Shown in pieces: positions 14,581 to 63,718 of a stretch of DNA of 64,000 nucleotides. The stretch lies in assembly GCA_040758135.1 (NCBI GenBank), contig JBFLWA010000004.1, positions 76,759 through 140,758 on the forward strand. The letters run 5' to 3'. Source of the DNA: Bacillota bacterium (GTDB lineage: Bacteria; Bacillota; Sulfobacillia; JBFLWA01). Numbering within the stretch: the first letter of the stretch is position 1; each line of letters opens with the position of its first letter. The notes beneath the pieces are model-generated. The model saw nothing but the letters and a program-made list of their open reading frames with translations. It made no database searches and was not told the DNA's origin. The position numbers and the translations under genes are program-made.

Positions 14581-14598
14581 TTGTGCAAATGGTCACAA
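14581..14598. promoter_or_regulatory. candidate Rex operator upstream of gcvT
   Basis: TTGTGCAAATGGTCACAA matches 12 of the 14 defined positions of the Rex consensus TTGTGAA-N4-TTCACAA. Confidence 0.45.
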
Positions 14599-36553: not shown

Positions 36554-37027
36554 TCAGGCCCGAAGCAGCCCCCGCAGGTTAGCCATCTCAATGGCGGTCA
36601 GGGCCGCTTCCCAGCCCTTGTTGCCGCCCTTGGTGCCGGCCCGCTCGATGGCCTGTTCGATGGTGTCGGTGGTCAGGACCCCGAAGACGGTGGGAACCCC
36701 GGTCCCCAGCCCGACCTGGGCCACCCCCTTGGCCACCTCAGAGGCGACGAAATCGAAGTGCGGGGTGGCACCCCGAATCACCGCCCCCAGACAGATGACC
36801 GTGCTGTACTTACCGCTGCCTGCGGCGAGCTGGGCGGCCAGTGGGATCTCGAAGGCACCGGGAACCCAGATCACCTCCACATCCTCGGCCTGCACCCCGT
36901 GCCGGGTGAGGCAGTCCAGAGCCCCACTCAGGAGCTTGCTGGTGATAAACTCATTGAACCGGCTGAGGATGATCCCGAACCTCAGCCCTTCTCCCATCAG
37001 GTGACCTTCAATCACTTTGCTAGTCAC
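36554..37027 (-). CDS. ribH: 6,7-dimethyl-8-ribityllumazine synthase
   Basis: 157-aa ORF with VPGAFEIP and the conserved lumazine synthase core. It is the last gene of the rib operon. Confidence 0.95.
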
Positions 37028-37042
37028 TGCAGTTCTCCTCCC

Positions 37043-38242: not shown

Positions 38243-38257
38243 GATGATACCTCCTGC

Positions 38258-38893
38258 TCAGAACCCGAGTTCCTTCAGGCGCTCGGCGGTAAGGGGGCGC
38301 TGCCGCCCCGCCTCCCGGTAGCGGGTCAGGTATTTGGCAATCATATCGGCCTCCAGATTGACCAGGTCACCGGGGCGGCGGTCGCCCAGGTTGGTGACCT
38401 GCTGGGTATGGGGGATCAGGTCCACGGCCAGGCTGTCGGGGCGCCGGTCGGCGATGGTCAGGCTAACCCCGTCCACGGCGATGGAGCCCTTCTGGGCCAG
38501 GTAGGGGCGGACGGCTGGTGGGGCCAGGATCCAGAGCTCGGCCGAGGAGGCGCGCCGGTCGATGCGCAGCACCCGGCCGACGCCATCCACATGCCCCTGA
38601 ACCAAGTGGCCTTCGAGGTGCTGGTCGGCCCGGAGCGCCCGCTCCAGGTTGACCCGGCTTCCGCTCCGCAGCCAGCGGAGGTTGGTCTTCTCCACTGTCT
38701 CGGCCATAACATCAGCCTGAAACATATCGCCGGCCCGGTGGACTACCGTCAGGCAGACCCCGTTGACGGCAATACTATCGCCCACCGACGCGCTGGCGGT
38801 GGTGGCCGGGGCGACAATGGTCAGGCGCAGCTCGCCGGCCCTGGCCACGGCCCGGCGCACGGCCCCCACCTCGGTAATAAGTCCGGTGAACAT
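38258..38893 (-). CDS. ribE: riboflavin synthase alpha chain
   Basis: 211-aa ORF with an [11 protein letters not shown]-terminus and an internally duplicated barrel. Confidence 0.95.
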
Positions 38894-40005
38894 TAGTCTA
38901 CCTCCCCACGGGTGCTGGGATAAGCGGTTATCAACCAGTCTGCCCCCACTGCCTCCACCGTCTCAATCACCAGGGGGCGGGCCTGGCGCAGCAACTCCGG
39001 ACCCTGCCCGCCAACGGGGCCGGGAGCCGATCGCCCGCCAATGAGCATTGGGGCCACAAAGAACAGAAACTTGTCGACACATCCAGCCGCCACGAAGGCG
39101 GCGGCCACCTCGGGTCCACCCTCCACCAGCAAGCTGGTGATCTCGCGCTGGGCCAGCAATGGCAGGAGCTCGCCGGGCTCGGGGCGCGACCCGGCGGCCC
39201 GGTGCACCTCGATCCCCAGCCGGGTCAGAGCCCGCTCCCGGGCCGGGTCGGCCCCCCGCCCGGACATGACCAGGGTGGCGACCTCCCCGGCCGTGGCGGC
39301 CAGGCGCGAGGCGGTGGGCAGGCGGAGGCGGCTGTCCAGCACCACCCGCAGGGGATTCTGTCCGCCCGGCACCCGGGCGGTGAGCAGCGGGTCATCGGCC
39401 AGCACCGTGCCAATTCCCACCAGTATGGCATCATACTGGCTGCGCAGCCGGTAGACCCGCTCGCGGGCCGGCTCGGAAGTGATCCAGCGCGAGTCGCCGC
39501 CAACAGTGGCCACCTTGCCGTCCAGGCTCATGGCCGCTTTCAGCGCCACAAAGGGGCGGCGCTCCCGCATAAAGGTGAAGAAGACCTCGTTCTGGCGCCG
39601 GGCCGCCCCGGACAGGAGTCCCACCTCCACCTCAACTCCGGCCGACCGTAGCTCGGCGATACCCCGCCCGGCCACCAGCGGGTTGGGGTCCATGGCCGCG
39701 ACCACCACCCGGCGCAACCCGGCATCAATGATCGCCCGGGTGCAGGGCGGGGTGCGCCCGTAGTGGCAGCAAGGCTCAAGGGTGACATAGAGGGAGCCGC
39801 CGGCCGCCCGGCCGCCCGCCTCCCGCAGGGCCAGGATCTCGGCGTGGGGCTCACCGGCCCGCTGGTGCCAGCCGCGGCCCACGGCCTCGCCGGTGGCGTC
39901 GAGCACCACCGCCCCCACCATGGGGTTGGGGCTGACGGTGGCCCGGCCCAGCTCGGCCAGGCGCAGGGCTTCAGTCATCCACTGCCGGTCATCCACACTG
40001 CTCAC
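38893..40005 (-). CDS. ribD: bifunctional diaminohydroxyphosphoribosylaminopyrimidine deaminase / 5-amino-6-(5-phosphoribosylamino)uracil reductase
   Basis: Deaminase zinc motifs HAEILAL and TLEPCCHYGRTPPC, followed by the reductase domain. The start is uncertain: GTG 40005, GTG 39996 or ATG 39978. The track ORF start at 40065 would lie inside the riboswitch expression platform. Confidence 0.9.
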   Translation of the reverse strand: MSSVDDRQWMTEALRLAELGRATVSPNPMVGAVVLDATGEAVGRGWHQRAGEPHAEILALREAGGRAAGGSLYVTLEPCCHYGRTPPCTRAIIDAGLRRVVVAAMDPNPLVAGRGIAELRSAGVEVEVGLLSGAARRQNEVFFTFMRERRPFVALKAAMSLDGKVATVGGDSRWITSEPARERVYRLRSQYDAILVGIGTVLADDPLLTARVPGGQNPLRVVLDSRLRLPTASRLAATAGEVATLVMSGRGADPARERALTRLGIEVHRAAGSRPEPGELLPLLAQREITSLLVEGGPEVAAAFVAAGCVDKFLFFVAPMLIGGRSAPGPVGGQGPELLRQARPLVIETVEAVGADWLITAYPSTRGEVD

Positions 40006-40024
40006 CCCCGACAAACAACTAGCC

Positions 40025-40222
40025 CCGGGTCGAAAAAAACCGGGGCAATACGCGTGCGCAAACAACCAATGGCGCGCTCGAACCTTCTCCCATCCAGACT
40101 GTACTGTCGGCCCCGGAATCTCACCGGATCCTGCCGCCTAAGCGGCTCGCGGGCTCCCTCAAGGAGGTTACCGCCGGTCAGGAATTGGGGGTTTCCCCCC
40201 TCACCATGCCCCGAAGGTAGTA
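40025..40222 (-). promoter_or_regulatory. FMN riboswitch (RFN element) controlling ribD
   Basis: The minus strand reads CTTCGGGGCATGGTGAGGGGGGAAACCCCCAATTCCTGACCGGCGGTAA...AGCCCGCGAGCC...GGATCCGGTGAGATTCCGGGGCCGACAGTACAGTCTGGATGGGAGAAGG. This matches the conserved RFN core blocks. Confidence 0.9.
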
Positions 40223-46966: not shown

Positions 46967-47753
46967 CTATCCGGATAGCCTCAATGGTCTGCTCTCTAAC
47001 GGGTAATCTCGTAGCCCCATCAGGTAGGCGATGTCCGCCGTCGGGTCGATTACCGGTTCGATCTTCCCTGTCTTCGAGGTGAACAGGCTGGTCACTCCGG
47101 GCCCGTGACCGGCGATTACCGAATGCCGTGGATCACGATGCCAATGGACATGCCCCCTGCCAGTAAATGCGGCCAGATGAATGATCAGCATCAACAATAG
47201 CCACCAGGTCGCCCAGGCGCAGGTCCTCCAGGCCGTATTCGCGGACCACGCCCTCGTCAAAATAGTTAATATCGTAATCGCCCCGGTAGACGTTGTCCCG
47301 GCCCAGGCCGGAGCCCATCACCGCCGCCGGCACCGTGAGCCCGGATGAGGACCTTATCGCCGATAACTATCTTCTCCATAGTCTCCCGGTCGAAATCGAC
47401 CATCACCCGCTCGGCCCCGCCATGCTTGCCGGTGACCACACCCCGTGCCCCTTCGGCTTTGCCGGAGACCACAATGGCCTCATTGCCCAGGCAGGCCAGC
47501 ACGTTCAGGCCGCCGTTGGCGCCGCTGAAGCCGTCGCCTCCTTGTTCTTGATGCTCACCGCCGGCTCCACATGGTCGGCCTCCCAGTCCACCGCTGAGTC
47601 GCCCACCCGCATGTTGTAGGTAATCCCACCGGTCCCCACCAGCACCGCTAGATCGCCATCGGCGGTGACGTTGTAAGGGCTGTGACCAATCCCCGGGTGG
47701 GCCACTTCGCCTAGCACTGAAATCTCTATCAGACGTTCGATACTAGTCCGCAT
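46967..47753 (-). pseudogene. DUF4438-like gene broken by several frameshifts
   Basis: Four consecutive fragments in different frames (47505-47753, 47266-47502, 47133-47333, 46967-47260) read as one protein: ...HVEPAVSIKNKE / LACLGNEAIVVSGKAEGARGVVTGKHGGAERVMVDFD / GDYDINYFDEGVVREYGLEDLRLGDLVAI / GHGPGVTSLFTS. The family assignment is from recollection. Confidence 0.55.
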
Positions 47754-49311: not shown

Positions 49312-49398
49312 TTGTGAAAGTCTTCACAAATTATTGTTTACAGGCCCCTTTGAGACATGCTAGAATGCATTTAGGGTAGTTTGTGCACATCTTCATAA
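49312..49398 (+). promoter_or_regulatory. hydrogenase-operon promoter flanked by two Rex operators
   Basis: A perfect Rex box TTGTGAAAGTCTTCACAA lies at 49312-49329. The promoter is TTTACA (49337-49342), an 18-nt spacer, then TAGAAT (49361-49366). A second box, TTGTGCACATCTTCATAA (49381-49398), matches 12 of 14 positions. Confidence 0.75.
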
Positions 49399-49412: not shown

Positions 49413-49661
49413 TTGACGGTAATCACGGTCTGCATCGGCAGTGGCTGCCACCTCAAAGGCGCTCACCGCATCATCGACCGCCTCAAGTCTCTCTTGCAGG
49501 AATATAGCCTGGCTGCCGCCGTCCGCCTCAAGGCCTCCTTCTGCCAGAACCACTGCACCCAGGGAGTGGTGGTCAGCTTTGATGACCGCCGCTACACCGG
49601 AGTTAGCCCAGAGAGCATCGATGCCCTGTTCGCCAGTGAGATTAGGAGGGGGTCGATGTGA
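49413..49661 (+). CDS. thioredoxin-like [2Fe-2S] ferredoxin (HfsA/NuoE-like small subunit)
   Basis: Four-Cys pattern CIGSGCH...FCQNHC. I prefer the TTG at 49413, with an AAGGAGAGGAG RBS, over the track start at 49383. Confidence 0.7.
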   Translation: MTVITVCIGSGCHLKGAHRIIDRLKSLLQEYSLAAAVRLKASFCQNHCTQGVVVSFDDRRYTGVSPESIDALFASEIRRGSM

Positions 49662-51343
49662 GCTGCGTCACCACCAACAAGGCCCGCTGCCAGGATTGCC
49701 ACCGCTGTATCCGCGTCTGCCCGGTAAAAGCTATCGGCCTGCGCCATGGGCAATGCTGGGTAGTGGCTGAGCGCTGCATCCTCTGCGGCGCGTGCTTGCG
49801 CGCCTGCCCGCAAAAGGCTAAGCTAGTGGCCAATGCCACCGATCGGGTGCGCCAGCTCATCGCCGCCGGGCGACCGGTGGTGGCTAGCTTGGCCCCCTCC
49901 TACCCCGCCGCCTGGTCCCGCCCGGGCCAGCTGGTGGCGGCCCTGCGCCGCCTGGGGTTCACCGCAGTGGAGGAGACGGCGGTGGCCGCTGCCCCGGTGG
50001 CCGAGACCTATCGCCAGCGTTTCGCGGCCAGCACCGCCCCGCTCATCTCGGCCTGCTGCCCGGTGGTGGTGGAGCTGATCGAATCGCGCTTTCCCTCGCT
50101 CATCCCCTACTTGGCCCCCTCGGCCTCGCCCATGGTCGCCCATGCCTCTGACCTGGCGCAGCGCCGCCCGGAGGCAGCGATGGTCTTCATCGGCCCCTGC
50201 ATCGCCAAGATGCAGGAGGCCCAGCGCACCAAGACCCAGGGCCGGGTCGCCGCGGTACTCACCTTTGACCAGCTGGCATCGTGGTTGGCTGAGGAGGGAA
50301 TCGACCCCGCGCAGCTGCCGGAGGAGCAGCCCGACCTGGTCGCTGGCCTCCTGGCTACCTTCCCCCTGACTCGGGGAATCCGTCAGGCCGCCGGCCTCTC
50401 CAGCCTCCCCTCGGCCCAGCTGATCAGTGTGGATGGGCTGGACGGCTGCCTAGAAACCCTCTCCGATCTGGCCTCCGGTGCCATCGCCCCGGGACCGGTC
50501 TTCTTCGAACTGCTGGCCTGCCGCGGCGGCTGTATCGGCGGCTCCGGCCTCTCCAGCCCGCTTGGGCTGGTCGCCCGCCACCAGGCGGTGGTGGCCCACG
50601 CCCGGGAGTGCCCGGCCCAGCCGTACCGCCCGGCCGAGGTGGCCGCTTGCTTCGCCGCCCAGACCATAGACGCACCCCAGCCCACCGATGAACAGATGCG
50701 AGAGATCCTCTCCCGCATCGGCAAACGGAGCCCGGCCGATGAGAAGAACTGCGGAGGCTGCGGCTACAGTACCTGCCGGGAGAAGGCAATCGCCGTCCAC
50801 CAGGGCCTGGCCGAACCGGAGATGTGCGTCCCCTATATGAAAGCCAAGTTTGAGACCCTGGCCCACGCTGTGGTTGACTCCAGCCTCAGCGGGGTAGTGA
50901 TTGTCAATGGTCAGATGGAGATTCAGGAGTTCAACCCGGCTGCCAACCGGATGTTCAACCCCGGCGGGCTTGACCCCAAAAACCATTCGCTGGGCACCTT
51001 CCTGGACCCGGCCGACTTCCAGCGGGTCTGGGAGCGCAAGGAGCGCATCGTGGCCAAGCGGGTGGTTTACCCCCACCACAACCTGGTTACCAGCCAGACG
51101 ATCTACCCGCTGGAGAACTACGGAATGGTGGTGGGCCTGATAACCGACATTACCGATCAGGAGAGCCGGGCCCAGGCCGAGGCCGAACTCCGGGAGAAGA
51201 CAGTGGAGAAAGCCACGGCGGTCATAAAGAACCAGATGCGGCTGGCCCAGGAGATCGCCGGCCTACTGGGCGAGGCTACCTCGGAGAGCAAAGCCACCCT
51301 GCTGGAGCTGGTCGCGCTCCTGACCAGCCGGGAGGAGGGTTGA
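49658..51343 (+). CDS. sensory-type [FeFe]-hydrogenase-like protein with C-terminal PAS domain (HydS/HfsB-like, group C)
   Basis: Two N-terminal 4Fe-4S motifs (CQDCHRCIRVCP, CILCGACLRACP). H-cluster motifs SACCP, GPCIAKMQE and ELLACRGGCIGG. An additional CGGCGYSTC...C motif, then a PAS-like segment (VVIVNGQMEIQEFNPAANRMF...GLITDITDQE). GTGA overlap with the upstream gene. Confidence 0.85.
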   Translation: MSCVTTNKARCQDCHRCIRVCPVKAIGLRHGQCWVVAERCILCGACLRACPQKAKLVANATDRVRQLIAAGRPVVASLAPSYPAAWSRPGQLVAALRRLGFTAVEETAVAAAPVAETYRQRFAASTAPLISACCPVVVELIESRFPSLIPYLAPSASPMVAHASDLAQRRPEAAMVFIGPCIAKMQEAQRTKTQGRVAAVLTFDQLASWLAEEGIDPAQLPEEQPDLVAGLLATFPLTRGIRQAAGLSSLPSAQLISVDGLDGCLETLSDLASGAIAPGPVFFELLACRGGCIGGSGLSSPLGLVARHQAVVAHARECPAQPYRPAEVAACFAAQTIDAPQPTDEQMREILSRIGKRSPADEKNCGGCGYSTCREKAIAVHQGLAEPEMCVPYMKAKFETLAHAVVDSSLSGVVIVNGQMEIQEFNPAANRMFNPGGLDPKNHSLGTFLDPADFQRVWERKERIVAKRVVYPHHNLVTSQTIYPLENYGMVVGLITDITDQESRAQAEAELREKTVEKATAVIKNQMRLAQEIAGLLGEATSESKATLLELVALLTSREEG

Positions 51344-51344
51344 G

Positions 51345-52490
51345 ATGCTTATCTCGGCCGATATTGCCTGCCGCCAGCTACCTAAGGAGGGTGAGGAGCT
51401 GTGCGGCGACGCGGTGGAAATCGTCCGCGACCGCCAGGGAGTGACAGTCATCCTCTCCGATGGTCTGGGGAGCGGGGTCAAGGCCAGCATCCTGGCGACC
51501 CTCACCGTAAAGGTCGCCGCCGGTCTGCTGCGCCGTCGGGTCGACCTCCACACCGTTCTCGAATCCGTCGCCGACACCCTGCCGGTCTGCCAGACCCGGG
51601 GGCTGGCCTACTCCACTCTCTCGATCCTGCGTCTGGAAGAGACCGGCCAGGCCAGCCTGGTGGAGATCGGCAACCCGGGGCTGCTCCTCTTCCGGGGCGG
51701 TCGACCAGTACCCGTCGAGCGCCGCACTTCCTGCATCATGGGGAAAGAGGTGGCCGAAGCTAAATTCGCTGTAGAGCCTGGCGATTGCCTGCTTCTGGTC
51801 TCTGACGGAGTGATCCACGCCGGGGTCGAGGCCCTGTTCGATCTGGGATTGGGCCCGGAGGGCCTCATCGAGCACCTCCCCGACCCCTGCCAGCCGGCCC
51901 GCACCGCCATCGAACTGGCCCGGATTATCATCGAGCTGGCCGAGGCTTGTTCCTGCGGGGCACCGCGCGACGACGCCACCGCCGTGGCAGTGAAGATCCG
52001 GGCACCGAGCCGGGTCACTGTCTGTACCGGGCCGCCCGTGCGCCCCGCCGATGACCGGCGGTTGATCCAGCGGCTCCTGGCCGATGTCGCCAGCCAGAAG
52101 GTGGTCTGCGGCGGCACCACCGGCCAGATCGTGGCCCGGGAGACCGGGCATGAGCTGACGGTGGAGCCTGAGTACGCCGACCCGGCCATCCCGCCCACCG
52201 CCGAAATCGAGGGCGTGGCCCTGGCCACCGAGGGAATCCTAACTCTCAACCGCTGTCTGACCATCCTCAGCCGGCCCGAGCCCGAGATCACCGGAGCCGA
52301 TGGCGCCTCACGCCTGGCCCGGATTCTGCTGGAGGCTGATGAGGTAACCTTCTTGGTGGGGCTGGCCCAAAACCCGGCCCACCGCGACTTGGAGACCCTG
52401 GCCCACCTATTGCCCAGAGACAAGAGCGTCGACCGCCTGCAGTCCATCCTCGAGGAGATGGGCAAGCGGGTGATGGTTGAATTCTTCTAG
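51345..52490 (+). CDS. PP2C/SpoIIE-family serine phosphatase
   Basis: EELCGDAVEIVRDRQGVTVILSDGLGSGVKASILA and LLLVSDGVIHAG match PP2C-type metal-binding motifs. The gene starts 2 nt after the HydS-like stop. Confidence 0.85.
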   Translation: MLISADIACRQLPKEGEELCGDAVEIVRDRQGVTVILSDGLGSGVKASILATLTVKVAAGLLRRRVDLHTVLESVADTLPVCQTRGLAYSTLSILRLEETGQASLVEIGNPGLLLFRGGRPVPVERRTSCIMGKEVAEAKFAVEPGDCLLLVSDGVIHAGVEALFDLGLGPEGLIEHLPDPCQPARTAIELARIIIELAEACSCGAPRDDATAVAVKIRAPSRVTVCTGPPVRPADDRRLIQRLLADVASQKVVCGGTTGQIVARETGHELTVEPEYADPAIPPTAEIEGVALATEGILTLNRCLTILSRPEPEITGADGASRLARILLEADEVTFLVGLAQNPAHRDLETLAHLLPRDKSVDRLQSILEEMGKRVMVEFF

Positions 52491-52507
52491 AGAGAGGTAC
52501 TGTTTAT

Positions 52508-52765
52508 ATGGAGAAGAAGCTTGTCGTAGAAGTCTGCGCCGGGACCACCTGTCACCTGATGGGCGCCTCCGACCTGTTGCTGGCCCTGAAGCGTCTCGAG
52601 CCGGGGCTACGGGAGCGAGTTCGCATCTCTTTCTGTGCCTGTCTCGGCGAGTGCTCCCACGGCCCCAACCTGCGGGTCAGCGGCAACCTCTACCACCGAG
52701 TCGACCCCGAGCTGCTGCCCCTGCTCCTTACTCGCCTACTGGACGAATTGGGGGATGAGCTGTGA
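52508..52765 (+). CDS. thioredoxin-like [2Fe-2S] ferredoxin, second copy
   Basis: 85-aa ORF with Cys pattern CAGTTCH...CACLGEC. Its stop overlaps the start of the next gene (GTGA). Confidence 0.7.
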   Translation: MEKKLVVEVCAGTTCHLMGASDLLLALKRLEPGLRERVRISFCACLGECSHGPNLRVSGNLYHRVDPELLPLLLTRLLDELGDEL

Positions 52766-54213
52766 AGCGCTACATCACCGAAATCACCCGGCTCAAGCGG
52801 CGGGCATACGCCGAGCTGGCCCGCATCGCCTTGGCCGGGAGGCTCACCGAGGAGATCGACTACCTCCCCCAGCGCTTGGTCAAGGACGGGATCACCATCA
52901 GCCGCTGCTGCGAGCATAAGGAGCGGGCCGTCATCACCGACCGGCTGCGGCTGGCCCTGGGCTTCGCGCCCGAAGAGTGTGGCGGCGAGCGGCTCTCCCA
53001 CACCGCCCGGCGGGCGCTGGCCAAGGGCACCCCGGCCGGCCCGGTCATCGAGGTGCTGGGCAGTGCCTGCGACCGGTGTCCCATAGATAAGATTGTAGTG
53101 ACTAACGCCTGTCGTAACTGCTCGGCCCACCATTGCCGGGCCGTCTGCCCCCGGGAAGCCATTGATATCATTGCCGGGCGGGCCTATGTTAACCAAGAGC
53201 GCTGCGTGGCCTGCGGCCAGTGTGCCGGGGCCTGCCCCTTCGGCGCGATCATCCCGGTGGAGCGCCCCTGCGAGGCGGCCTGCGCGGTGAAGGCCATCAC
53301 CCCCGATGTCAACCAGCGAGCCAGCATCAACCGAGACAAGTGCACCAACTGCGGCGCCTGCGTCGGCGCCTGCCCCTTCGGAGCCATTGGCGACCGCACC
53401 GCCCTGGTACAGGTGGCCGGCTGGCTGACCGGAGAGGCAGACAAGCGCCCCGTGGCCATGCTGGCCCCCAGTTTCGTCGGGCAGCTGGGCCCGGAGGTCT
53501 CACCGGGACAACTGGCCCAGGCTCTCATCGCCCTGGGCTTCGTGGCGGTGAGCGAGGTAGCGGCCGGGGCCGACCTGGTGGCAGCCCATGAGGCGGAGGA
53601 GTATGCCCGGAGGGTGCCGCAGGAGACCCCCTTCATGACCAGCTCTTGTTGCCCGGCCTTTGTCCATCTAGTGAAAAAGCACTTCCCCAGACTAGAGGTG
53701 CACCTCTCGCGCACCCTCTCGCCTGCTTTAGCCCTCGCGGCCGAGTTGCGCCAGGTGCAGCCCGGGCGCCCGCTGGTCTTCATCGGCCCCTGCCTGGCCA
53801 AAAAGGGTGAAGCTGCTGCCTCCGGGCTGGTAGACGCGGTCCTCACTTTCGAAGAGCTGGGGGCATTGCTGGTAGGCGGCGGGATCAATGCCGCGGCCCA
53901 GGCTAAGGTAGCACTGGGCAATGAGCCAAGCCCCGAAGCGCGGGGCTTCGGGGTAAGTGGCGGCGTTGCTCGGACCCTGGCCGAGCGGCTGGGAGGGTCT
54001 TACACCGCGGCCTGTGCCTCCGGGCTGGCCGATTGCCAGAAGAAGCTGCGCCTGGCGGCTGCCGGGCGCCTGGGCGCGGGCTTCCTGGAGGGGATGGCCT
54101 GCGCCGGTGGGTGCTGTTTCGGGCCGGGGGTGCTGGTGCCGGGAGAGGTTTCCGGGCCGGCCATGGAGAACTTTGCCGGTATCCCATCCGTCCATCGAGG
54201 TGAGACCGCATGA
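52762..54213 (+). CDS. [FeFe]-hydrogenase large-subunit-type protein (HfsD-like; catalytic or second sensor)
   Basis: Several 4Fe-4S motifs (CVACGQCAGACP, CTNCGACVGACP). H-cluster motifs TSSCCP, GPCLAKKGE and EGMACAGGCCFG. Confidence 0.85.
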   Translation: MKRYITEITRLKRRAYAELARIALAGRLTEEIDYLPQRLVKDGITISRCCEHKERAVITDRLRLALGFAPEECGGERLSHTARRALAKGTPAGPVIEVLGSACDRCPIDKIVVTNACRNCSAHHCRAVCPREAIDIIAGRAYVNQERCVACGQCAGACPFGAIIPVERPCEAACAVKAITPDVNQRASINRDKCTNCGACVGACPFGAIGDRTALVQVAGWLTGEADKRPVAMLAPSFVGQLGPEVSPGQLAQALIALGFVAVSEVAAGADLVAAHEAEEYARRVPQETPFMTSSCCPAFVHLVKKHFPRLEVHLSRTLSPALALAAELRQVQPGRPLVFIGPCLAKKGEAAASGLVDAVLTFEELGALLVGGGINAAAQAKVALGNEPSPEARGFGVSGGVARTLAERLGGSYTAACASGLADCQKKLRLAAAGRLGAGFLEGMACAGGCCFGPGVLVPGEVSGPAMENFAGIPSVHRGETA

Positions 54214-54869
54214 AGAAGAAGCCTGCCGCCGGCCAGACGGCAAAACCAGTTCCCCTGGCGGTGATCAAGCGCCTCCCCCTCTACTACGCCAGGTTGGCCA
54301 GCCTGGCCGAGGCCGGTATCCTGCGCGTCTCCTCCAGCCACCTAGCCCGGCTGGCCGGGGTGACCCCAGCCCAGCTGCGGCACGATCTCAGCCACTTCGG
54401 CTCCTTCGGCCAGCAAGGCTACGGCTACCGCACCCACGAGTTGCAGGCAGCCATCGGGCGCATCCTGGGGCTGGACCGTTCCACCCGGATGGTGCTGGTG
54501 GGGGCCGGCCACCTGGGCCGGGCCCTCGCCAACTACCAGGGTTTCAGGCGGAGACGTTTCTTCCTGCAGGCCATCTTCGACTCCGATCCGGCGCTGGTAG
54601 GCCAGGTTGTCGCCGACCTGACGGTGCAGGAGGCCTCCCAGCTCAGCGACTACCTGGGCCACCACCGGATCGAGATCGGCATCATCGCCGTCCCGGCCGA
54701 AGAGGCCCAGGCGGTGGCTGACCGGCTGGTAGCCGGCGGGGTCAAAGGAATCTGGAACTTCGCCCACCTGCGGCTAAGCGTGCCGGATGATGTCGTGGTC
54801 GAGCAGGTTAACCTCACCGATAGCCTGCTGACCCTGGCCTTCCGCCTGGAGGAAAGGAAAAAGGCCTAA
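54210..54869 (+). CDS. rex: redox-sensing transcriptional repressor Rex
   Basis: VIKRLPLYYARLASLAEAGILRVSSSHLARLAGVTPAQLRHDLSHFGSFGQQGYGY plus a Rossmann GAGHLG. ATGA overlap with the hydrogenase gene. Confidence 0.95.
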   Translation: MKKKPAAGQTAKPVPLAVIKRLPLYYARLASLAEAGILRVSSSHLARLAGVTPAQLRHDLSHFGSFGQQGYGYRTHELQAAIGRILGLDRSTRMVLVGAGHLGRALANYQGFRRRRFFLQAIFDSDPALVGQVVADLTVQEASQLSDYLGHHRIEIGIIAVPAEEAQAVADRLVAGGVKGIWNFAHLRLSVPDDVVVEQVNLTDSLLTLAFRLEERKKA

Positions 54870-55501
54870 CGCCAGCCCGGTAGCTCCCCCCAGAACCTGG
54901 CCAGGTAGCGGGCCGACCCCTGGAGCCGCAGCCTAACCCCAGGGGGCAGCGCCGCTCCATGGTAGTCAACCCCGTCGGCCAGCAGCTTTTCCAGGGGCAC
55001 GGGCTCAACGCCCAGGCCTTGGAAGACCCGGGCCTCGGTGAACAGCAGACCGGGCACCTCGGCGCTGGCCTGGGGATTGTCTACTAGCACCGCCTCGTAA
55101 ACTGCGTTGATGTAGTCGCGCTGGTAGGAGGCGCTGTCGTCGCGTCTCAGGGTCACCTGCTGTTGCCAAACAAGCAGCGGGGCTTGCTCGCCGTCAAGTG
55201 CCTCGTTGTCCAGTTCGACCCGGGAAGCTTCATCCTCGCCCCGACACCACAGGGTCCAGGGAGCGTGGACTGGGATGGCTCGGGCTCCGGTCTCCTCCAG
55301 TGCCTGGCGGCGCACCGCGCCGATCAGCGTCTCGCCTGGTTCCTGCCAGCCGCCGATACCGACCACAGGAATGATGGTTCCCTCGGGCCGAGTCTCCCAG
55401 TATTTCTGGTGGCCCAGCGCCCAGACCAGCCTTCCTTGGTACCATGCGAGTAGCCCGGTGCTAACACGTCCACCGGGGCCATAGCTCTGCAGATCCAGCA
55501 A
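54866..55501 (-). CDS. NUDIX-domain hydrolase
   Basis: Nudix box GGWQEPGETLIGAVRRQALEETG. Convergent with rex, with a 4-nt overlap. Confidence 0.7.
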   Translation of the reverse strand: MLDLQSYGPGGRVSTGLLAWYQGRLVWALGHQKYWETRPEGTIIPVVGIGGWQEPGETLIGAVRRQALEETGARAIPVHAPWTLWCRGEDEASRVELDNEALDGEQAPLLVWQQQVTLRRDDSASYQRDYINAVYEAVLVDNPQASAEVPGLLFTEARVFQGLGVEPVPLEKLLADGVDYHGAALPPGVRLRLQGSARYLARFWGELPGWR

Positions 55502-56144: not shown

Positions 56145-56956
56145 ATGAAATCCTCAGGCCAGCTGCGGCACCTATTCGAGCATCGGTTTGGCGCGGGCGG
56201 GGTTATCTTCCGGGGCGGGGCCCGGGACGGAACCTGGTTTGCCGGGGAGCTGCTGGATCCCGCCGGCCGGCGCCTGGATTTCCACGGGGAGGAGCTGTGG
56301 CCGGAGGAGAAGATTCGCCCCAACGAAGAACAGTGGGTCCCCCAGAGCTGGGACCACGAGTGGGCCTGCGCCACCGGCCGCTATAGGTATCGCCTGGATC
56401 TCTGCCGGGCAGCACTGGCTTTGGGCGAGCCCATCGTGGAGCTGGCGGCCGGACCCGGCGGCGGCCAGTTGGCCCCCTTTCTCCGGCTGTATCCCAGGGC
56501 GCCAGTAGTCGCCAACGATATCGACTGGCGCATCCTCCGGGGGTGGCGGCGCTTTCTCGCCAAGCAGCTGCCGGACCATGGCGCCGAGTTCGCCGCCTTC
56601 GACATTCGCCGGATGCCCTTTGGCGATAGGACCGCGGCCTGTTTTTCATCTTGCGGAGGAATCACCAACGTGCCCGGCAGCGGCCAGGTGCTGGCCGAGT
56701 GTGTGCGCTGCCTAATCCCGGGCGGCTTGTTACTGGCTCAGGAGACCGGGCTGACCGCCGATTCCCGGGAGTGCCTCCCGGAGGGGCTGCGCCGGCAAGT
56801 GGACTACCACTCGCCCTACATCTCCCGCGGCTGGCGGGCCCTCTTGGAGGAGGCCAGCTTCAGGGTGGAGCAGTTCAGCCTGGCGGGAGAGCGAGAGATG
56901 GATCCCGAGCAAGACGGGCTGGCCCACGACGCAGCCCGGTTCGGAGTGAGGCTGAG
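56145..56956 (+). CDS. class I SAM-dependent methyltransferase, native 3' end apparently lost
   Basis: SAM motif [11 protein letters not shown] and ANDID. The track ORF runs on to 57167, but beyond ~56956 it is simply antisense to the dnaK fragment. Confidence 0.65.
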
Positions 56957-58132
56957 AATGGTGGTCGTGTTGCGCTCAATCAGCTTGGTGAAGATGCCGC
57001 CGAGCGTCTCGATGCCGAGCGAGAGCGGGGTGACGTCGAGCAGGAGAACATCCTTGACCTCGCCGGCCAGCACGCCGCCCTGGATCGCGGCGCCCATGGC
57101 GACGACTTCGTCCGGGTTGATGCCTTTGAAGCCTTCCTTGCCGAGCAGCCGCTTGACCAGCTCCTGAACCGCCGGGATGCGGGTCGAGCCGCCGACGAGC
57201 AGCACCTTGCTGATCTGGTCGGGCGACAGCTTAGCGTCGCTGAGCGCCTGGCGGACGGGGCCAGCGCAGGCCTCGACCAGGTCGCGGGTGAGTTCGTCGA
57301 ACTTGGCGCGGGTCAAGGTCACGTCGAGGTGCTTCGGACCGCTGGCATCGGCGGTGATGAACGGCAGGTTGATGTTCGCCGTCAGCAGGCTGGAGAGTTC
57401 GATCTTCGCCTTCTCCGCGGCTTCCATCAGGCGCTGCTTGGCCGTTGGGTCCTTGCGCAGGTCGATGCCATTCTCCCGCTGGAACTGGTCGGCCACGTAG
57501 TTCATGATCCGCTCGTCGAAGTCGTCGCCGCCGAGGCGGGTGTTGCCGCTGGTCGCCTTGACCTCGAAGACGTGGTCGCCGAGCTCGAGGATGGAGACGT
57601 CGAACGTGCCGCCGCCGAGGTCGAAGACGAGGACGGTCTGGTCCTGCTCCTTGTCGAGGCCGTAGGCCAGCGCCGCCGCGGTCGGCTCGTTGATGATGCG
57701 CAGGACTTCAAGGCCGGCAATCTGGCCGGCGTCCTTGGTCGCCTGGCGCTGCGAGTCGCTGAAGTAGGCCGGCACGGTGATGACGGCCTGGGTGATCTTC
57801 TCGTTGAGGAACGCCTCAGCGTCGGCCTTCAGCTTGGCGAGGACCATCGCCGAGATCTCCGGCGGGGTGTATTCCTTGTCGCCCTCGATGCGGACCTTGT
57901 AACCGGCCTCGCCCATGTGGCGCTTGATCGACCGGACGGTGCGCTCGGGGTTCGAGACGGCCTGGCGCTTGGCGCGCTCGCCGACGATGCGTTCATTGGT
58001 CTTGGTGAAGCCGACAACCGACGGGGTGAGCCGGCTGCCCTCAGCGTTCGGGATGACGGTCGGCTGGCCGCCTTCCATGAAGGCGACGACCGAGTTCGTG
58101 GTCCCGAGGTCGATACCGATGACTTTCGCCAT
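56957..58132 (-). pseudogene. dnaK: dnaK, 3'-truncated (about 390 of ~610-640 aa)
   Basis: Perfect Hsp70 N-terminus ([27 protein letters not shown]) through ...[10 protein letters not shown]. Homology stops there, and the ORF continues as unrelated sequence to 56816. Confidence 0.85.
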
Positions 58133-58207: not shown

Positions 58208-58879
58208 CTAAGGCTTGCGGGAAACCTTGCACATCGCGGCGCGGATGACCTTGCCGTACATCAGATAACCGCGGCGGAAGACCTCGACAACGGTGTTATC
58301 AGGATACTCGTCGCTGTCGACCCGCATCACCGCTTCGTGGAACTCGGGGTCGAACGGCTTGCCGTCCGCATCAATCGGCTCGACGCCCTCTTTGCTCAGC
58401 GCCTCACCGAACTGCTTGACGATCAGATTGATGCCATCGCGGACGGGTCCGACCTCAGTCGCCGTCTCAGCCGACTTCTTCGCCAGGTCGAGGTTGTCGA
58501 CCACCGGCAGCAGCCGCAGGATCAGCTTCTCAGCGGCGAAGCGCGCCAGGTCGTCGCGATCGCGCTCGACGCGGCGCCGAAAGTTGTCGAGATCGGCCTG
58601 GGCGCGCCGCCAGCCGTCGAGGTTGTCGGCCGCCTTCGCCTCGGCCTCGCTCAGCCGTGCCTCGGCTTCTTTCAGCTTCGTCTCGAGTTCAGTCGCGCGG
58701 GCTTCCGCCTGCTCCAGCCTGGCCGCCAGCTCGGCCGTTGGTTCTGTCAGATCCGACGCCGGGTTGGCGTGGCCGTCCCCGGTCAGCTCGCCGAGGTCGG
58801 AGGCCGGATTCGCGGCCGGCTCGCCATGCACCTCAGCCTGGACCGCCGGGCGGTCTTTTTTCCTGTGCGTGTGCTCCAT
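58208..58879 (-). CDS. grpE: nucleotide exchange factor GrpE
   Basis: Coiled-coil N-terminus, then RRAQADLDNFRRRVERD...LLPVVDNLDLA...FDPEFHEAV. Confidence 0.9.
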   Translation of the reverse strand: MEHTHRKKDRPAVQAEVHGEPAANPASDLGELTGDGHANPASDLTEPTAELAARLEQAEARATELETKLKEAEARLSEAEAKAADNLDGWRRAQADLDNFRRRVERDRDDLARFAAEKLILRLLPVVDNLDLAKKSAETATEVGPVRDGINLIVKQFGEALSKEGVEPIDADGKPFDPEFHEAVMRVDSDEYPDNTVVEVFRRGYLMYGKVIRAAMCKVSRKP

Positions 58880-59029: not shown

Positions 59030-60645
59030 TTAAAAGTCCAGCTTGTCGAAGTCCGTGCCGCCCTGGGCGCCGCCGCCCGCCGCGCCCGCGCCGGCCGCCG
59101 TCCCGTTCTTACTCTCTTTCATCTTAATGATGGTGTCGATGCGGAGGATCGCCTCGGCAATCTCGCCCGCCGCCTTCAGCGCGTGGATCTTGACCAGCGC
59201 CGGGTCGACGACGCCGAGCTCGTACATATCAGCCAGCTCTCCGGTGTCGCAGTCGACGGCCAGCGAGTCGAGGCCCTTCGCCGCCTGGGCCGACAGCACG
59301 TCGCCGACCTTCTCGAGCGGGTTGAAGCCGGCATTGGCGACGATCTGCGAGAACGGCTTCTTCAGCGCCTCGACAACGCAGTCGATGCCGTAGACCGACA
59401 TGCCCTTGACCGAGTCGCGGGAGCGCGCCACTTCGCGGGAGACGGCCAGCTCGATCGAGCCGCCGCCTGGCACGACGCCGCCCTTAATGGCGGCCTGGAC
59501 CGACGCCGCCGCGTCCTTGGCGATCCGCTCGCGCTCGCCGACCACTTCCTGCGTGGCCGCGCCGACGAGGATGGTCGCCATCGGCTTGCCGGCGCCGCCG
59601 AGGATGCGGATGTGCTCGAGCTTCTCGTCCTCATAGGCCCGCTCCGCCTGGCCGAGGTACTTCGCCAGGTCGGCCGCCTCTTTCCTGAGGGCCGTGCGCT
59701 TGATCATCTTCGCGCCGGTGTGCTCGGCCGCCCGCCGCAGGTCCTTGCTGGCGACGCGGCTGCAGACCACGACGCCGGCGTCGGTGAAGAACTCCTCGGC
59801 GACGTCCTCGATCCCGCGGTCGATGAGGATCATGTTCACGCCGAGCTGCTTTATCTTTTCCAGATTGCGCCTGAACTCTTCCTGAAGCTCCATGTAGCGG
59901 GCGAAGCCGGCTTCGGTGCCGAGCGCCTCGTCCTCAAGCTCCTCCGGCTCGAGCGCGTCGTCGACGATGAGCAGCTTGACGCCGTTGATTTCCCTCGGCA
60001 TCTGCTTGTTCAGCCGCTCCTTGTCGACGATGACGCCGTTGAAGACCTCATTGTCGGCGCCTTCCTCGGCGATGACGGTGTCCATCAGCTTGAAGCCCGC
60101 CTCGCCGAGCTTCTCGCGGCCGATCATCCGGGCCGCCCGGCGTGGCCGGCCGCGGCGATGTCCTCATGCTCGCGGCCGGCCACGCCGGCCACCTTGAGCA
60201 GCGTCTCGCTGTCATCGTCGCCGACGGGCCTGGCCTTCGCCCTGACCGCGTCGAGGGCGGTCCGCACTCCGGCCCGGATGCCGTCGATGACGCGCGTCAC
60301 CGGCACGCCGCGGATGACCTGGTTCGCGCCCTCGGCGAGCAGCGCGCCGGCCATGATGGTGGCGGTGGTGGTGCCGTCGCCGACCTCTTCCTCCTGCGCC
60401 TTGGCTACGTTGATGACCATCCGCGCGGCGGGGTGGTTGACGTCCATGCGGGTCAGGATGGTGATGCCGTCGTTGGTGATGACGACGTCGCCGAAGCGGT
60501 CGACCAGCATCGTGTCGAGTCCCTTGCTGCCGATCGTGCCCTCGACCGCGCTGGCAATGGCACGGACGGCGTTGACGTTGGTCATCAGCGCCGCCAGGCG
60601 CTCATCGACCTCACTCTGCTGTGCCACTTGCTTGACGTTTGACAA
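59030..60645 (-). pseudogene. thermosome-like (group II/III) chaperonin with one frameshift
   Basis: The first part (60124-60645) has TIGSKGLDTMLVDRFGDVVITNDGITIL and EEEVGDGTTTATIMAGALL. The second part (59030-60127) has VVPGGGSIELAVS and GVVDPALVKIHALKAAGEIAEAILRIDTII plus a Gly/Ala-rich tail. The frames join near 60125-60150 (...AARMIGREK). Confidence 0.8.
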
Positions 60646-60675
60646 AGGTGGGCCTCCCGTTCGGGCGCCCGTGGG

Positions 60676-61707
60676 CTAGTCGCCTAGGAACTTGTCGAGC
60701 GCGTCGTTGAGCTGGGCCGAGACGAACTTGACGATGGACGCCACGCGGTCGTACTGCATCCGCTTCGGGCCGAGGACGCCGATGGTGCCGAGCGGCCGCC
60801 CGTCGACGAAGTAGGTCGCCTTGACGAGGCTGCACTCCGCCAGCTCCGGCAGGCCGTGCTCGATGCCGATGGTGATCTGGAAGCTATTCTCACCGTGCGT
60901 CAGCAGCCGCTCGACGACCGTCTCCTTCTGCAGCGCCGACAGCACCGCGCGGACCTTGTCAAAGTCGCGGAACTCGGGCTGGTCGAGGATGTTGAGCTGG
61001 CCGCCGACGACCACGCGGTCGTCCTCGTCGCCGCCTTTCGGCGTCTGGACGAGCTCCATCGTCTCGGCGAGGATGTGTTTGTACTGCGACAGCTCAGTCT
61101 CAAGGGCGCGGATCGTGCCCCGGCCGAGCTGATCGACAGTCTGGCCGCGCAGGTAATGGTTGATGACAACGGATATCTTCTCCAGGGCGTCCATGTCGAT
61201 GTCCGGCGGCACATTAATAACGCGGTTCTCGACCATGCCGTTGTCCGTGACGAGCATGATGAGGGCCTGGCCGTCGCGCAGCGCGACGATCGAGAGATGC
61301 TGGAAAACGGCTTTATCACGCCGCGGCCCGAGGACCAACGCCGTGTAGCGGGTGGCGTCAGAGAGCAGGCGCGCCGTGTTGTTGATGAGGCTGTGGAGCT
61401 TGCCGAGGCGGGCCTCGAAGGCGCCGTGGATGATATCCTGTTCGCTCTGGCTGAGCTGCCGGTCGGCCATCAGCCAGTCGACGTAAAAGCGGTAGCCGCT
61501 GTCCGAGGGGACCCGGCCGGCCGAGGTGTGGGGCTGCTCGATCAGCCCGAGGTCCTCAAGATCGGCCATTTCGTTGCGGATCGTGGCGGGGCTGACGCCG
61601 AGGCGGTACTTGCGGGCGATGGTGCGAGAGCCGACGGGCTCGGCGGTGGCGATATAGTCTTCGACGATGGCCTGGAGAACAAGGCGCTTGCGTTCATCAA
61701 GCCGCAT
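60676..61707 (-). CDS. hrcA: heat-inducible transcription repressor HrcA
   Basis: 343-aa ORF starting MRLDERKRLVLQAIVEDYIATAEPVGSRTIARKY...ATIRNEMADLEDLGLIEQPHTSAGRVPS. Confidence 0.95.
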   Translation of the reverse strand: MRLDERKRLVLQAIVEDYIATAEPVGSRTIARKYRLGVSPATIRNEMADLEDLGLIEQPHTSAGRVPSDSGYRFYVDWLMADRQLSQSEQDIIHGAFEARLGKLHSLINNTARLLSDATRYTALVLGPRRDKAVFQHLSIVALRDGQALIMLVTDNGMVENRVINVPPDIDMDALEKISVVINHYLRGQTVDQLGRGTIRALETELSQYKHILAETMELVQTPKGGDEDDRVVVGGQLNILDQPEFRDFDKVRAVLSALQKETVVERLLTHGENSFQITIGIEHGLPELAECSLVKATYFVDGRPLGTIGVLGPKRMQYDRVASIVKFVSAQLNDALDKFLGD

Positions 61708-62257: not shown

Positions 62258-63196
62258 TCAGTCGTCAGCGGCATTCGGCGCCGCGATGCGCGGCGGGTTG
62301 ATCCAAGCCGCGGTCGGTACTGCGGGCGGCGCAGGCCGCTTGTCGACGAAGCGCTCCGGGTGTCGCTCGTACGCGCCAGTCAGGGTCTCCTGTCGGGCGG
62401 CGAGAACCCGTTCCACGCGGCCGTAGTGCACGTCCTCGGGTGTCAGCAACCCGATGCCGCTATGATGGTGCTCCGAGTTGTACCAGCCGAAGAAGTACTG
62501 GCAGAAGGCCCTGGCGTCTTCGAGGCTTCCGAACCGTTCCGGGAACTCGGAACAGTACTTCAGCGTCTTGAACTGCGCTTCGGAGTAAGGGTTGTCGTTG
62601 CTGGTGTGCGGCCGGCTGTGCGTCTTGGCCACGCCCAGGTCAGCCAGGAGGAAGGCCACCGGCTTCGAGGTCATCGAGGAGCCACGGTCGGCGTGAATGG
62701 TCAACTGCCCGGGCTGGACGCCCTGCTTGAGTATGGTCTGCTCGATCAGCCTCCTGGCCAGTTCAGCGCTCTCGCGTTCGGCCACCATCCAGCCCACGAC
62801 GTAGCGGCTGAAGATGTCCATGATTGTATACAGGTGGTAATAGCGCCATTTGACAGGACCCATGAGCTTCGTGATGTCCCAAGACCAGACCTGGCCCGGC
62901 CGTTCGGCGAGGAGCTCGGGCCGCTGGTAGACGGGATGAACCAGTTGGTCGCGCCGTTCGCGGGTCTCCGCGTTCTCCCCGAGCAGCCGGTACATGGTGC
63001 TGATGGAGGCCAGGTACTCGCCCTCGTCCAGCAGCGTTGCGTAGATCTCGGGCACCGAGCGGTCGGCGAAGCGGGGCGAGCGCAGTTGCTCGAGCACCTG
63101 CTGTTGCTCCGCCTCGGTCAAGGCACGGGCCGGCTTCAGCCGGGGGCTGGGCACTCGCTTGGGCGATCGTCGGCGGTACAGCGTGGCGCGGTTCAC
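62258..63196 (-). CDS. IS3-family transposase OrfB (DDE integrase core)
   Basis: WSWDITKL, HADRGSSMTS and YNSEHHHSGIG(L)LTPEDVH are typical rve-domain motifs. The frame stays open upstream of the track start (..IDQLISAAEELAPAVGVAAACRGIGVNRATLYRRR), as expected for an OrfAB fusion. Confidence 0.9.
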   Translation of the reverse strand: MNRATLYRRRSPKRVPSPRLKPARALTEAEQQQVLEQLRSPRFADRSVPEIYATLLDEGEYLASISTMYRLLGENAETRERRDQLVHPVYQRPELLAERPGQVWSWDITKLMGPVKWRYYHLYTIMDIFSRYVVGWMVAERESAELARRLIEQTILKQGVQPGQLTIHADRGSSMTSKPVAFLLADLGVAKTHSRPHTSNDNPYSEAQFKTLKYCSEFPERFGSLEDARAFCQYFFGWYNSEHHHSGIGLLTPEDVHYGRVERVLAARQETLTGAYERHPERFVDKRPAPPAVPTAAWINPPRIAAPNAADD

Positions 63197-63293
63197 CCCG
63201 ATACCGCGGCAGGCCGCCGCGACCCCGACTGCGGGCGCCAGCTCTTCCGCGGCTGAGATCAGCTGGTCGATCCTTTCTTTGTGGAATCTATCC

Positions 63294-63659
63294 TCAGGAT
63301 CTCGGATATTTATCTTGCACTTCGATGATGGCTTCCGCTTGGGTCAGCTTGTGCTGAAGCCGCTCATTCTCGCGTTCCAGTTCAGCGACCCGGAGGGCAA
63401 GGGGGTTGGGCGGCTGGGGCTTCGGCCCGCGCTTCTTGGCCGAAAGCGCCTCCATCTCGGCTCTCTCGATCTGGTGCCGCCATTTGGCCAAGTGGGAGGA
63501 GTACAACCCTTCCCGCCGCAGCAGCGCGCCGATCTCTCCAGGCTTGCACCCGGCGGCCTCCTGCACGATCCGGCGCTTGTACTCGGCGCTGAACTTGCGC
63601 CGGACGGGCTTCGTGCTCACCTCGGGATCCGGGACGCGTTCCGCATCCTTTGCCTCCAT
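63294..63659 (-). CDS. IS3-family transposase OrfA (HTH)
   Basis: From ATG 63659: RRKFSAEYKRRIVQEAAGCKPGEIGALLRREGLYSSHLAKWRHQ plus a leucine-zipper-like C-terminus. Confidence 0.9.
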   Translation of the reverse strand: MEAKDAERVPDPEVSTKPVRRKFSAEYKRRIVQEAAGCKPGEIGALLRREGLYSSHLAKWRHQIERAEMEALSAKKRGPKPQPPNPLALRVAELERENERLQHKLTQAEAIIEVQDKYPRS

Positions 63660-63718
63660 GCTCTGGGGCAGCACTTTGAGAAGCTGGTTCGTCTATGCTC
63701 AACCTTTCCCCGCCCTCA

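Follow-up and report, generated by a model that had tools for sequence, protein, structure and literature searches.

A probable Rex-controlled hydrogen-metabolism operon encoding a putative H2-sensing [FeFe]-hydrogenase, a PP2C-family phosphatase and a group B hydrogenase in an uncultured groundwater Bacillota bacterium

How fermenting bacteria sense H2 and adjust their electron flow is still unsettled, and the question matters for hydrogen transfer between species, for methane from the rumen and for biofuel yields. In Thermoanaerobacterium saccharolyticum the hfsABCD genes constitute the main H2-evolving system, and genetics show a regulatory role for hfsB, whose deletion raises hydrogenase activity (PMC5707799), whilst HydS of Ruminococcus albus has been proposed as an H2 sensor that controls hydA2 (PMC5707799, PMC10838669). 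The biochemical model of a sensory [FeFe]-hydrogenase is HydS of Thermotoga maritima (TmHydS), a member of group C (also known as M2f). Here, a stretch of 64,000 nucleotides of contig JBFLWA010000004.1, analysed at its whole length and referred to as the window, is shown to contain six consecutive genes (49413-54869) that probably form an hfs/hydS-type hydrogen-metabolism operon under Rex control, read as one message from one promoter. The window belongs to a 142.8-kb contig in a metagenome-assembled genome (MAG) listed at NCBI as 'Bacillota bacterium', and its sequence is found in groundwater, subsurface and biofilm metagenomes.

The locus consists of six open reading frames (ORFs) on the plus strand, arranged head to tail:

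49413-49661, plus strand: fdxA (HfsA-like), a thioredoxin-like [2Fe-2S] protein of 82 amino acids (aa) with Cx4C...Cx3C, corresponding to the C-terminal half of NuoE/HydC
49658-51343, plus strand: hydS (HfsB-like), a putative H2-sensing group C [FeFe]-hydrogenase of 561 aa
51345-52490, plus strand: pp2c (HfsC-like), a PP2C/SpoIIE-family phosphatase of 381 aa (PF07228)
52508-52765, plus strand: fdxB, a second thioredoxin-like [2Fe-2S] protein of 85 aa (PF01257)
52762-54213, plus strand: a group B [FeFe]-hydrogenase (HfsD/HydA2-like) of 483 aa (TIGR04105)
54210-54869, plus strand: rex, a redox-sensing (NADH/NAD+) repressor of 219 aa (NF003990)

An initial annotation of this DNA, made from the sequence alone, had described these genes as six translationally coupled ORFs, and all of them are present on the plus strand where it had placed them. 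From the first junction to the last, the genes overlap by 4 nt (GTGA), are separated by 1 nt and then by 17 nt, and overlap twice more by 4 nt (GTGA, then ATGA); each of the six start codons is preceded by a purine run resembling a Shine-Dalgarno sequence. The start of fdxA is the TTG at 49413, which is preceded by AAGGAGAGGAG; the mechanical ORF begins earlier, at a GTG at 49383. The motifs reported for the two hydrogenases are also in place, namely SACCP, GPCIAKMQE, ELLACRGGCIGG and CGGCGYSTC in the first and TSSCCP, GPCLAKKGE and EGMACAGGCCFG in the second. As proposed, each large subunit follows its own small 2Fe-2S gene: both small proteins score above the PF01257 cut-off of 24.8 bits (29.8 bits for fdxA and 38.4 bits for fdxB), each carries four cysteines in a Cx4C...Cx3C arrangement, and the two are 35% identical. 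The gene order given there for hfsABCD (small FeS protein, then PAS-hydrogenase, phosphatase and hydrogenase) agrees with the published one (PMC11837493, PMC5707799) and is found here on one strand, with fdxB and rex as the extra genes. hydEFG maturases were sought in the window and none was found; its sole radical-SAM gene (8254-9255) adjoins glycine-cleavage genes.

The arrangement was compared with 80 loci from GTDB species genomes, of which 77 are informative for the neighbours of HydS and 64 for downstream gene order. PP2C follows HydS in 76 of the 77, a pairing that is, judged by gene order, essentially invariant, and a small 2Fe-2S gene lies directly upstream of HydS in 59. Downstream of the pair there is either a group B hydrogenase (19 of 64 loci) or a HydABC-type cluster, and four of these 19 loci have a second 2Fe-2S gene between PP2C and the group B hydrogenase. 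Rex is encoded ≤9 kb from HydS in 17 of the 80 loci, more often upstream, and the identical six-gene order with a terminal rex recurs in just one of the 64 (GTDB genome L004).

In the closest relative (locus L081), positions 9571-12655 hold the fdxA-hydS-pp2c core only, behind two Rex boxes, with HydS 67% and PP2C 75% identical to the window proteins. With this three-gene core as the relative's whole module, the hydrogenase-rex half evidently varies between near relatives, and the coupling of hydrogenase and rex is therefore not obligatory.

Judged from its sequence, the first hydrogenase, HydS, shows all the architectural hallmarks of the putatively sensory group C/M2f enzymes, and the initial annotation was right to describe it as a PP2C-linked enzyme of group C type. 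The marks of the class are its accessory clusters, the replacement of Met353 by Gly, the loss of proton-path residues and the PAS domain (PMC8163306, PMC10055695). HydS matches Fer4 twice, PF02906 (E 3.5e-46) and PF04060 (E 1.2e-9) in Pfam, and its plan comprises two [4Fe-4S] clusters (C11-C50), the H-domain, a Cx2Cx4Cx16C motif (C365-C390), a PAS domain (~409-497) and a C-terminal helix (499-557). In an alignment with 19 homologues, the N-terminal cluster cysteines (C11, C14, C17, C21, C40, C43, C46 and C50) are invariant, as are the H-cluster ligands C134, C181, C288 and C292 (C300, C355, C499 and C503 of CpI), which align to the group A motifs, and all four cysteines of C365-x2-C368-x4-C373-x16-C390, a motif as defined for M2f/group C (PMC8163306); the C-terminal helix ranks with the best-conserved parts of these proteins. 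Gly replaces CpI Met353 in all 19, Met497 is Leu in the window protein, and, when HydS is aligned with group A enzymes and the second hydrogenase, Val stands at E279 and Thr at E282. More than 3900 full-length homologues have the HydS architecture, and the window protein shares 36% identity with R. albus HydS along 98% of its length.

The PAS segment named in the initial annotation falls below the Pfam cut-off when HydS is searched alone (PAS_8, E 8e-4, 19.6 bits against a cut-off of 21.8) but is confirmed by three other routes. Of the 19 aligned homologues, 14 match PF00989; a profile of residues 398-505 matches only solved PAS domains (best E 2.3e-5); and the AlphaFold model, with a pLDDT (predicted local distance difference test) score of 83, has a five-stranded PAS topology at 409-497, with block-mean values of 83-94, followed by a long helix. 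Since the PAS domain is present, group D was ruled out for this enzyme, and group A was considered and rejected for both hydrogenases. The more specific label 'C3, phosphatase-linked' may apply.

The proton-relay and methionine residues, which the initial annotation had wanted scored against CpI, give a divided result: the proton-path glutamates and both Met353 and Met497 are lost, but the relay cysteine is kept, unlike in TmHydS. Because the equivalents of C299 and Ser319 are retained, some catalytic turnover by HydS is likely on residue grounds. The 299 position is Cys in every one of the 19 closest family members and in 38 of the 80 GTDB loci; for group C sequences, a share of only 17% with this residue has been published (PMC10055695).

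What HydS would sense could be argued differently. It might report not H2 as such but how oxidised or reduced the pool of ferredoxin or electron carriers is, with the H-cluster merely equilibrating the FeS chain with H2/H+ and the PAS domain responding to the oxidation state of a cluster or to another ligand. The dedicated 2Fe-2S partner beside HydS in most loci, the conservation of three accessory clusters, the recurrent linkage to Rex, itself a redox sensor, and the description of HfsB as possibly responsive to cellular redox potential (PMC11837493) would all suit such a role; however, the strict conservation of the H-cluster ligands would be needless in a pure FeS redox sensor, and the hydA2 transcript of R. 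albus goes down 90-fold when a partner organism removes H2 (PMC10838669), and we regard this reading as unlikely.

A little less probable still is that HydS serves as a second, slower catalytic hydrogenase, so that the locus would encode two working pairs (for example, for uptake and evolution) with PP2C regulating them post-translationally. The retained C299 and S319 equivalents, the slow turnover of H2 by TmHydS and TamHydS (PMC8163306, PMC10055695) and the provision of a small 2Fe-2S gene for each large gene are compatible with this. Against it stand the lost E279/E282 equivalents and the substitutions at M353 (Gly) and M497 (Leu), together with a C-terminal cluster, a PAS domain and a conserved signalling helix for which catalysis offers no rationale. 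The phosphatase, moreover, is linked to HydS in 76 of 77 loci whether a group B or a HydABC-type enzyme lies downstream, and deletion of hfsB in T. saccharolyticum raises hydrogenase activity (PMC5707799).

The phosphatase gene begins 1 nt after the hydS stop codon. Its product matches PF07228 (SpoIIE) with E 1.2e-19, and the catalytic domain (residues 1-219) contains the invariant metal-binding aspartates D22, D39, D154, D209 and D210. Foldseek searches with the model (pLDDT 87.9) recovered SpoIIE, RsbX, the RsbU domain of Rv1364c and a Ser/Thr phosphatase of Sphaerobacter thermophilus, with E values down to 2e-15; for the whole model, the best 50 matches listed were to PP2C domains only. The remaining ~160 residues (221-381) form a confidently modelled, conserved alpha/beta domain with the motifs TGPP, GG[TA][TS], DLVTEG and NPAH, the profile of which gave no PDB match at E ≤ 10 and, in Pfam, nothing beyond noise. 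When 1.84 billion representatives were scanned, 763 clusters proved to have this domain; in the best 150 of those listed, its position is always C-terminal, in proteins of ~380-430 aa or in shorter, fragment-like ones, and no alternative fusion was seen. The R. albus phosphatase is 33% identical over the full length, including the C-terminal domain.

It had been stated that the target of the phosphatase is not encoded in the window, and this was borne out by a Pfam scan of its ~60 ORFs, in which STAS, HATPase_c and Pkinase had no match: the ORFs scanned include neither a Ser/Thr or anti-sigma-type kinase nor a STAS protein. Because no STAS substrate or HATPase-type kinase is encoded nearby, the locus was not filed as a partner-switching module of the RsbU/SpoIIE type. 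The window likewise has no homologue of the kinase found in the R. albus unit, and three of the 80 related loci have one. The identity of the substrate and the C-terminal domain's role are questions for the whole family and do not concern this window alone.

On TIGR04105 FeFe_hydrog_B1 (cut-off 450), the second hydrogenase reaches 492.5 bits over residues 6-459, which places it in group B by NCBIfam and not in group A. Its P1 motif is TSSCCP (T[TS]SCCP in linked orthologues), it has neither a PAS domain nor the C-terminal cluster, and xTSCCPxx is the commonest P1 of group B (bioRxiv 10.1101/2023.06.23.541094); group B2 (TSCCCP) was considered and rejected. In the alignment to CpI it keeps the complete group A-type proton path (equivalents of C299, E279, E282, R286 and S319), with M353 replaced by Gly and M497 kept. 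It is 33% identical to HydS over the Fer4 and H-domains and 38% identical to HydA2 of R. albus. By analogy with the R. albus and Thermoanaerobacterium systems, it is likely to be the ferredoxin-dependent, H2-evolving working enzyme of the locus.

A control region with two predicted Rex operators, a feature absent from the initial annotation, lies upstream of fdxA and contains:

49312-49329, no strand assigned: Rex operator 1, TTGTGAAAGTCTTCACAA, a perfect match to the TTGTGAANNNNTTCACAA consensus, ending 7 bp before the -35 hexamer
49337-49366, plus strand: sigma-A-type promoter, TTTACA-18 nt-TAGAAT with a TG extension, 10/12 consensus matches
49381-49398, no strand assigned: Rex operator 2, TTGTGCACATCTTCATAA, with two mismatches, between the -10 hexamer and the ribosome-binding site

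Operator 1, the promoter, operator 2, the ribosome-binding sequence noted above and the TTG start of fdxA follow one another in this order, with 69 bp between the centres of the two operators. The promoter is the top-scoring promoter-like site within 48.5-56.2 kb, and a perfect Rex box has a chance expectation of 2e-5 in 64 kb of such GC-rich DNA. In L081, two boxes with one mismatch each and a 66-bp spacing stand before the first gene, in an intergenic region that has otherwise diverged. Across 1.2 Mb of the 80 loci there are 29 Rex-like boxes (≤2 mismatches), about half of which precede the start of HydS by 280-490 bp, at a position immediately 5' of the small 2Fe-2S gene; other boxes are found ahead of rex-hydABC-hydS clusters. 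As the operators are kept in L081 and precede the module in many lineages, the predicted Rex control of the HydS-PP2C module is old and widespread. In the described systems, Rex represses FeFe-hydrogenase genes and its own gene in Caldicellulosiruptor (PMC6391272), and a Rex site has been predicted at -78 upstream of hfsABCD (PMC5886521, Table 5).

The rex product scores 260 bits on NF003990 (cut-off 233) and matches PF06971 and PF02629, consistent with a winged-helix N-terminus and a Rossmann domain, in which the GxGxxG motif reads GAGHLG. Its ATG overlaps the stop codon of the group B hydrogenase gene (ATGA), and rex is the last gene of the message that the predicted Rex operators should repress. 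The proposal of an autoregulated transcript with a terminal rex, made before the operators had been recognised, is thus backed by the two predicted boxes around the promoter, by their conservation in L081 and by RNA contigs that span two of the junctions.

These contigs come from two groundwater metatranscriptomes, in which hydS is matched and the fdxB/hydrogenase (52685-52948) and hydrogenase/rex (54147-54739) junctions are crossed. RNA depth varies extremely over 30-49 kb of the window, a pattern that speaks for real RNA and against carry-over of DNA, and the locus is expressed in situ. Co-transcription of all six genes, as previously claimed, is in this way supported for the last three genes.

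By far the most represented gene of the 30-49 kb region in the two metatranscriptomes is at 33303-34010 (plus strand), where the contig depth reaches ~160, against ≤43 elsewhere in the region. Its product, 235 aa long, has a signal peptide and matches no Pfam family.

That the Rex boxes or the terminal rex have no functional tie to the operon, with Rex made mainly from an internal promoter, the boxes serving some other use or rex standing there by an accident of gene order, is very improbable. In its favour are a weak promoter-like site inside the group B hydrogenase gene (53162-53190, 9/12 matches), the lack of rex at this position in the nearest relative and the occurrence of the exact order in only one of 64 informative loci. 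Against it, the rex ATG overlaps the hydrogenase stop codon at a junction spanned by an RNA contig, chance does not account for a perfect operator next to the best promoter, the operators are conserved and Rex autoregulation is established elsewhere (PMC6391272).

Two further observations concern Rex and its surroundings. A third Rex-like box, TTGTGCAAATGGTCACAA (14581-14598, two mismatches), is located ~120 nt upstream of gcvT (13355-14461, minus strand), the head of gcvT-gcvH-gcvPA-gcvPB; Rfam detected no glycine riboswitch near it, and the NADH-producing glycine cleavage system may, from the position of the box, be a Rex target. Downstream, a 211-aa ORF (54866-55501, minus strand) runs convergently towards rex, with a 4-nt overlap at the rex stop codon. 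This ORF has no Pfam match and includes a Nudix-box-like stretch, GWQEPGETLIGAVRRQALEETGA; a nucleotide-pyrophosphatase-like gene beside an NADH sensor may merit attention.

Taking the Rex-controlled operon as the preferred reading, a mechanism can be proposed in which the sensing of H2, the signal from HydS to the phosphatase, the ferredoxin donor of the group B enzyme and the release of Rex by NADH are all drawn from R. albus, Thermoanaerobacterium and TmHydS. The sigma-A-type promoter between the two operators would drive fdxA-hydS-pp2c-fdxB-hydrogenase-rex as a single coupled message. At a low NADH/NAD+ ratio, Rex dimers would sit on both operators and block RNA polymerase, whilst a rise in NADH would release Rex and allow the operon to be expressed. 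The group B hydrogenase and its small 2Fe-2S partner would then dispose of reducing equivalents as H2, and Rex made from the last gene would restore repression, giving negative autoregulation. HydS, for its part, would bind H2 at an H-cluster that lacks a fast proton path, and its state would be passed through the C-terminal [4Fe-4S] cluster to the PAS domain, the terminal helix and the adjacent PP2C, which would dephosphorylate a protein encoded elsewhere and so bring the output of hydrogenase and fermentation into line with the partial pressure of H2.

Several points weigh against this operon reading. The RNA evidence is at contig level and of low depth, and covers hydS and two junctions, not the promoter or the fdxA/hydS, hydS/pp2c and pp2c/fdxB junctions; a terminator was looked for 3' of rex and none was found; and the module of the nearest relative has neither the group B hydrogenase nor rex. 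HydS keeps the C299 and Ser319 equivalents, sensing of H2 by group C enzymes is still termed putative (PMC8924675), and the ORFs scanned in the window encode no kinase or STAS partner of the phosphatase. The source, moreover, is a MAG of an uncultured groundwater Bacillota bacterium.

A bolder extension, to which we give little weight, is that Rex itself, or its occupancy of both operators, is the output of the HydS-PP2C sensor, with the C-terminal domain of PP2C (221-381) docking or receiving Rex or a Rex-bound partner on which the phosphatase would act. This would be allowed by the presence of Rex near HydS-PP2C in 17 of 80 loci, by the boxes before the module in many lineages, by the want of a linked kinase or STAS partner in most genomes and by the occurrence of the C-terminal domain in this phosphatase family only. 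If true, H2 pressure and NADH/NAD+ would converge on one repressor made from the same message, and the long-sought target of PP2C-linked (group C3-type) hydrogenases would be named.

The locus embodies no new principle, but a compact arrangement of a putative H2 sensor, a phosphatase, an H2-evolving enzyme and an NADH sensor that probably share one message. The wider value lies in the comparative results, namely the essentially invariant HydS-PP2C pair, the rarity of the R. albus kinase, the widespread Rex operators and the 160-residue domain unmatched by sequence, which together narrow the search for the output of the sensor.

The remainder of the window holds several other features. A decayed stretch lies 1.5-2.5 kb upstream of the operon control region, where a DUF4438 gene (46967-47753) is broken into several short ORFs and the GC content falls to 0.566 at 46-48 kb. 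On the minus strand, an FMN riboswitch (40078-40222, 95.9 bits) precedes a ribD, ribE, ribBA, ribH operon (36554-40065). Beyond rex, at 59030-61707 on the minus strand, a chaperonin of the Cpn60_TCP1 family is found between hrcA (60676-61707) and grpE (58208-58879); it is split into two ORFs (60124-60645 and 59030-60127) with a 4-nt overlap, as a frameshift or a split gene. The placement of a chaperonin within a dnaK operon is reminiscent of the 'archaeal-like' group III type present in some Firmicutes. The dnaK ORF itself (56816-58132, minus strand) matches positions 1-412 of the 599 in the HSP70 profile and is then out of frame, and a methyltransferase ORF (56145-57167, plus strand) occupies the place where the 3' part of dnaK is expected; the break could be a truncation, a frameshift or an assembly join. 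Near the end of the window, an insertion-sequence transposase pair (62258-63674, minus strand) consists of HTH_Tnp_1 and an rve integrase core.

Amongst described systems, the closest is on plasmid pRUMAL01 of R. albus 7, where the order is rex, adhE, phosphotransferase, 2Fe-2S, 2Fe-2S, hydS, SpoIIE phosphatase and hydA2. According to the plasmid record, it shares six protein types with the window, tightly packed on one strand, and the identities to the window proteins are 36% for HydS, 33% for PP2C, 38% for HydA2 and 34% for Rex. It differs in that rex is the first gene and not the last, both 2Fe-2S genes stand together upstream of hydS, and the unit includes adhE and a 249-aa APH-like kinase, neither of which is encoded here. 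No TTGTGAA-type box was seen in the R. albus locus; the Rex motif of Clostridia differs, which could account for this.

The hfsABCD locus of T. saccharolyticum has, by its published description, the same four-gene core, with a Ser phosphatase and a ferredoxin-linked hydrogenase (PMC11837493, PMC5707799), but it stops at four genes, with no second 2Fe-2S gene or rex. TmHydS has the same plan of two [4Fe-4S] clusters, H-domain, Cx2Cx4Cx16C motif and PAS domain, and, like the window protein, has Gly at M353 and has no group A proton-path glutamates (PMC8163306, PMC10055695). The C299 position is Ala and M497 is Ser in TmHydS, against Cys and Leu, respectively, in the window protein. HydS of Thermoanaerobacter mathranii (group D, M2e) resembles the window protein in its N-terminal clusters, its C-terminal four-Cys cluster, its disrupted proton path and its proposed sensory role (PMC8163306, PMC13104023), with Ser or Thr at M353 in place of Gly.

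The Rex regulons of Gram-positive anaerobes, such as that of Caldicellulosiruptor bescii, have the same operator consensus as the window, and no report from them places rex, translationally coupled, at the end of a sensor-hydrogenase operon. A further parallel is HoxBC with HoxJ/HoxA of Ralstonia eutropha, in which a low-activity hydrogenase and a PAS-containing partner likewise control hydrogenase expression (PMC5707799); HoxBC belongs to the unrelated [NiFe] family, with no homology, and its output is a histidine kinase and a response regulator, compared with PP2C here. The novelty that the initial annotation saw in joining H2 and NADH sensing on one transcript was an overreach, given the R. 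albus 7 plasmid unit, the predicted Rex site of hfsABCD (PMC5886521) and the gene order of L004. With R. albus, Thermoanaerobacterium, L004 and the group C3 and group B pairing reported for Vallitalea (PMC6163223) preceding it, the locus is a known kind of system, and Rex next to hydS, PP2C and hydA2 is already found in R. albus 7.

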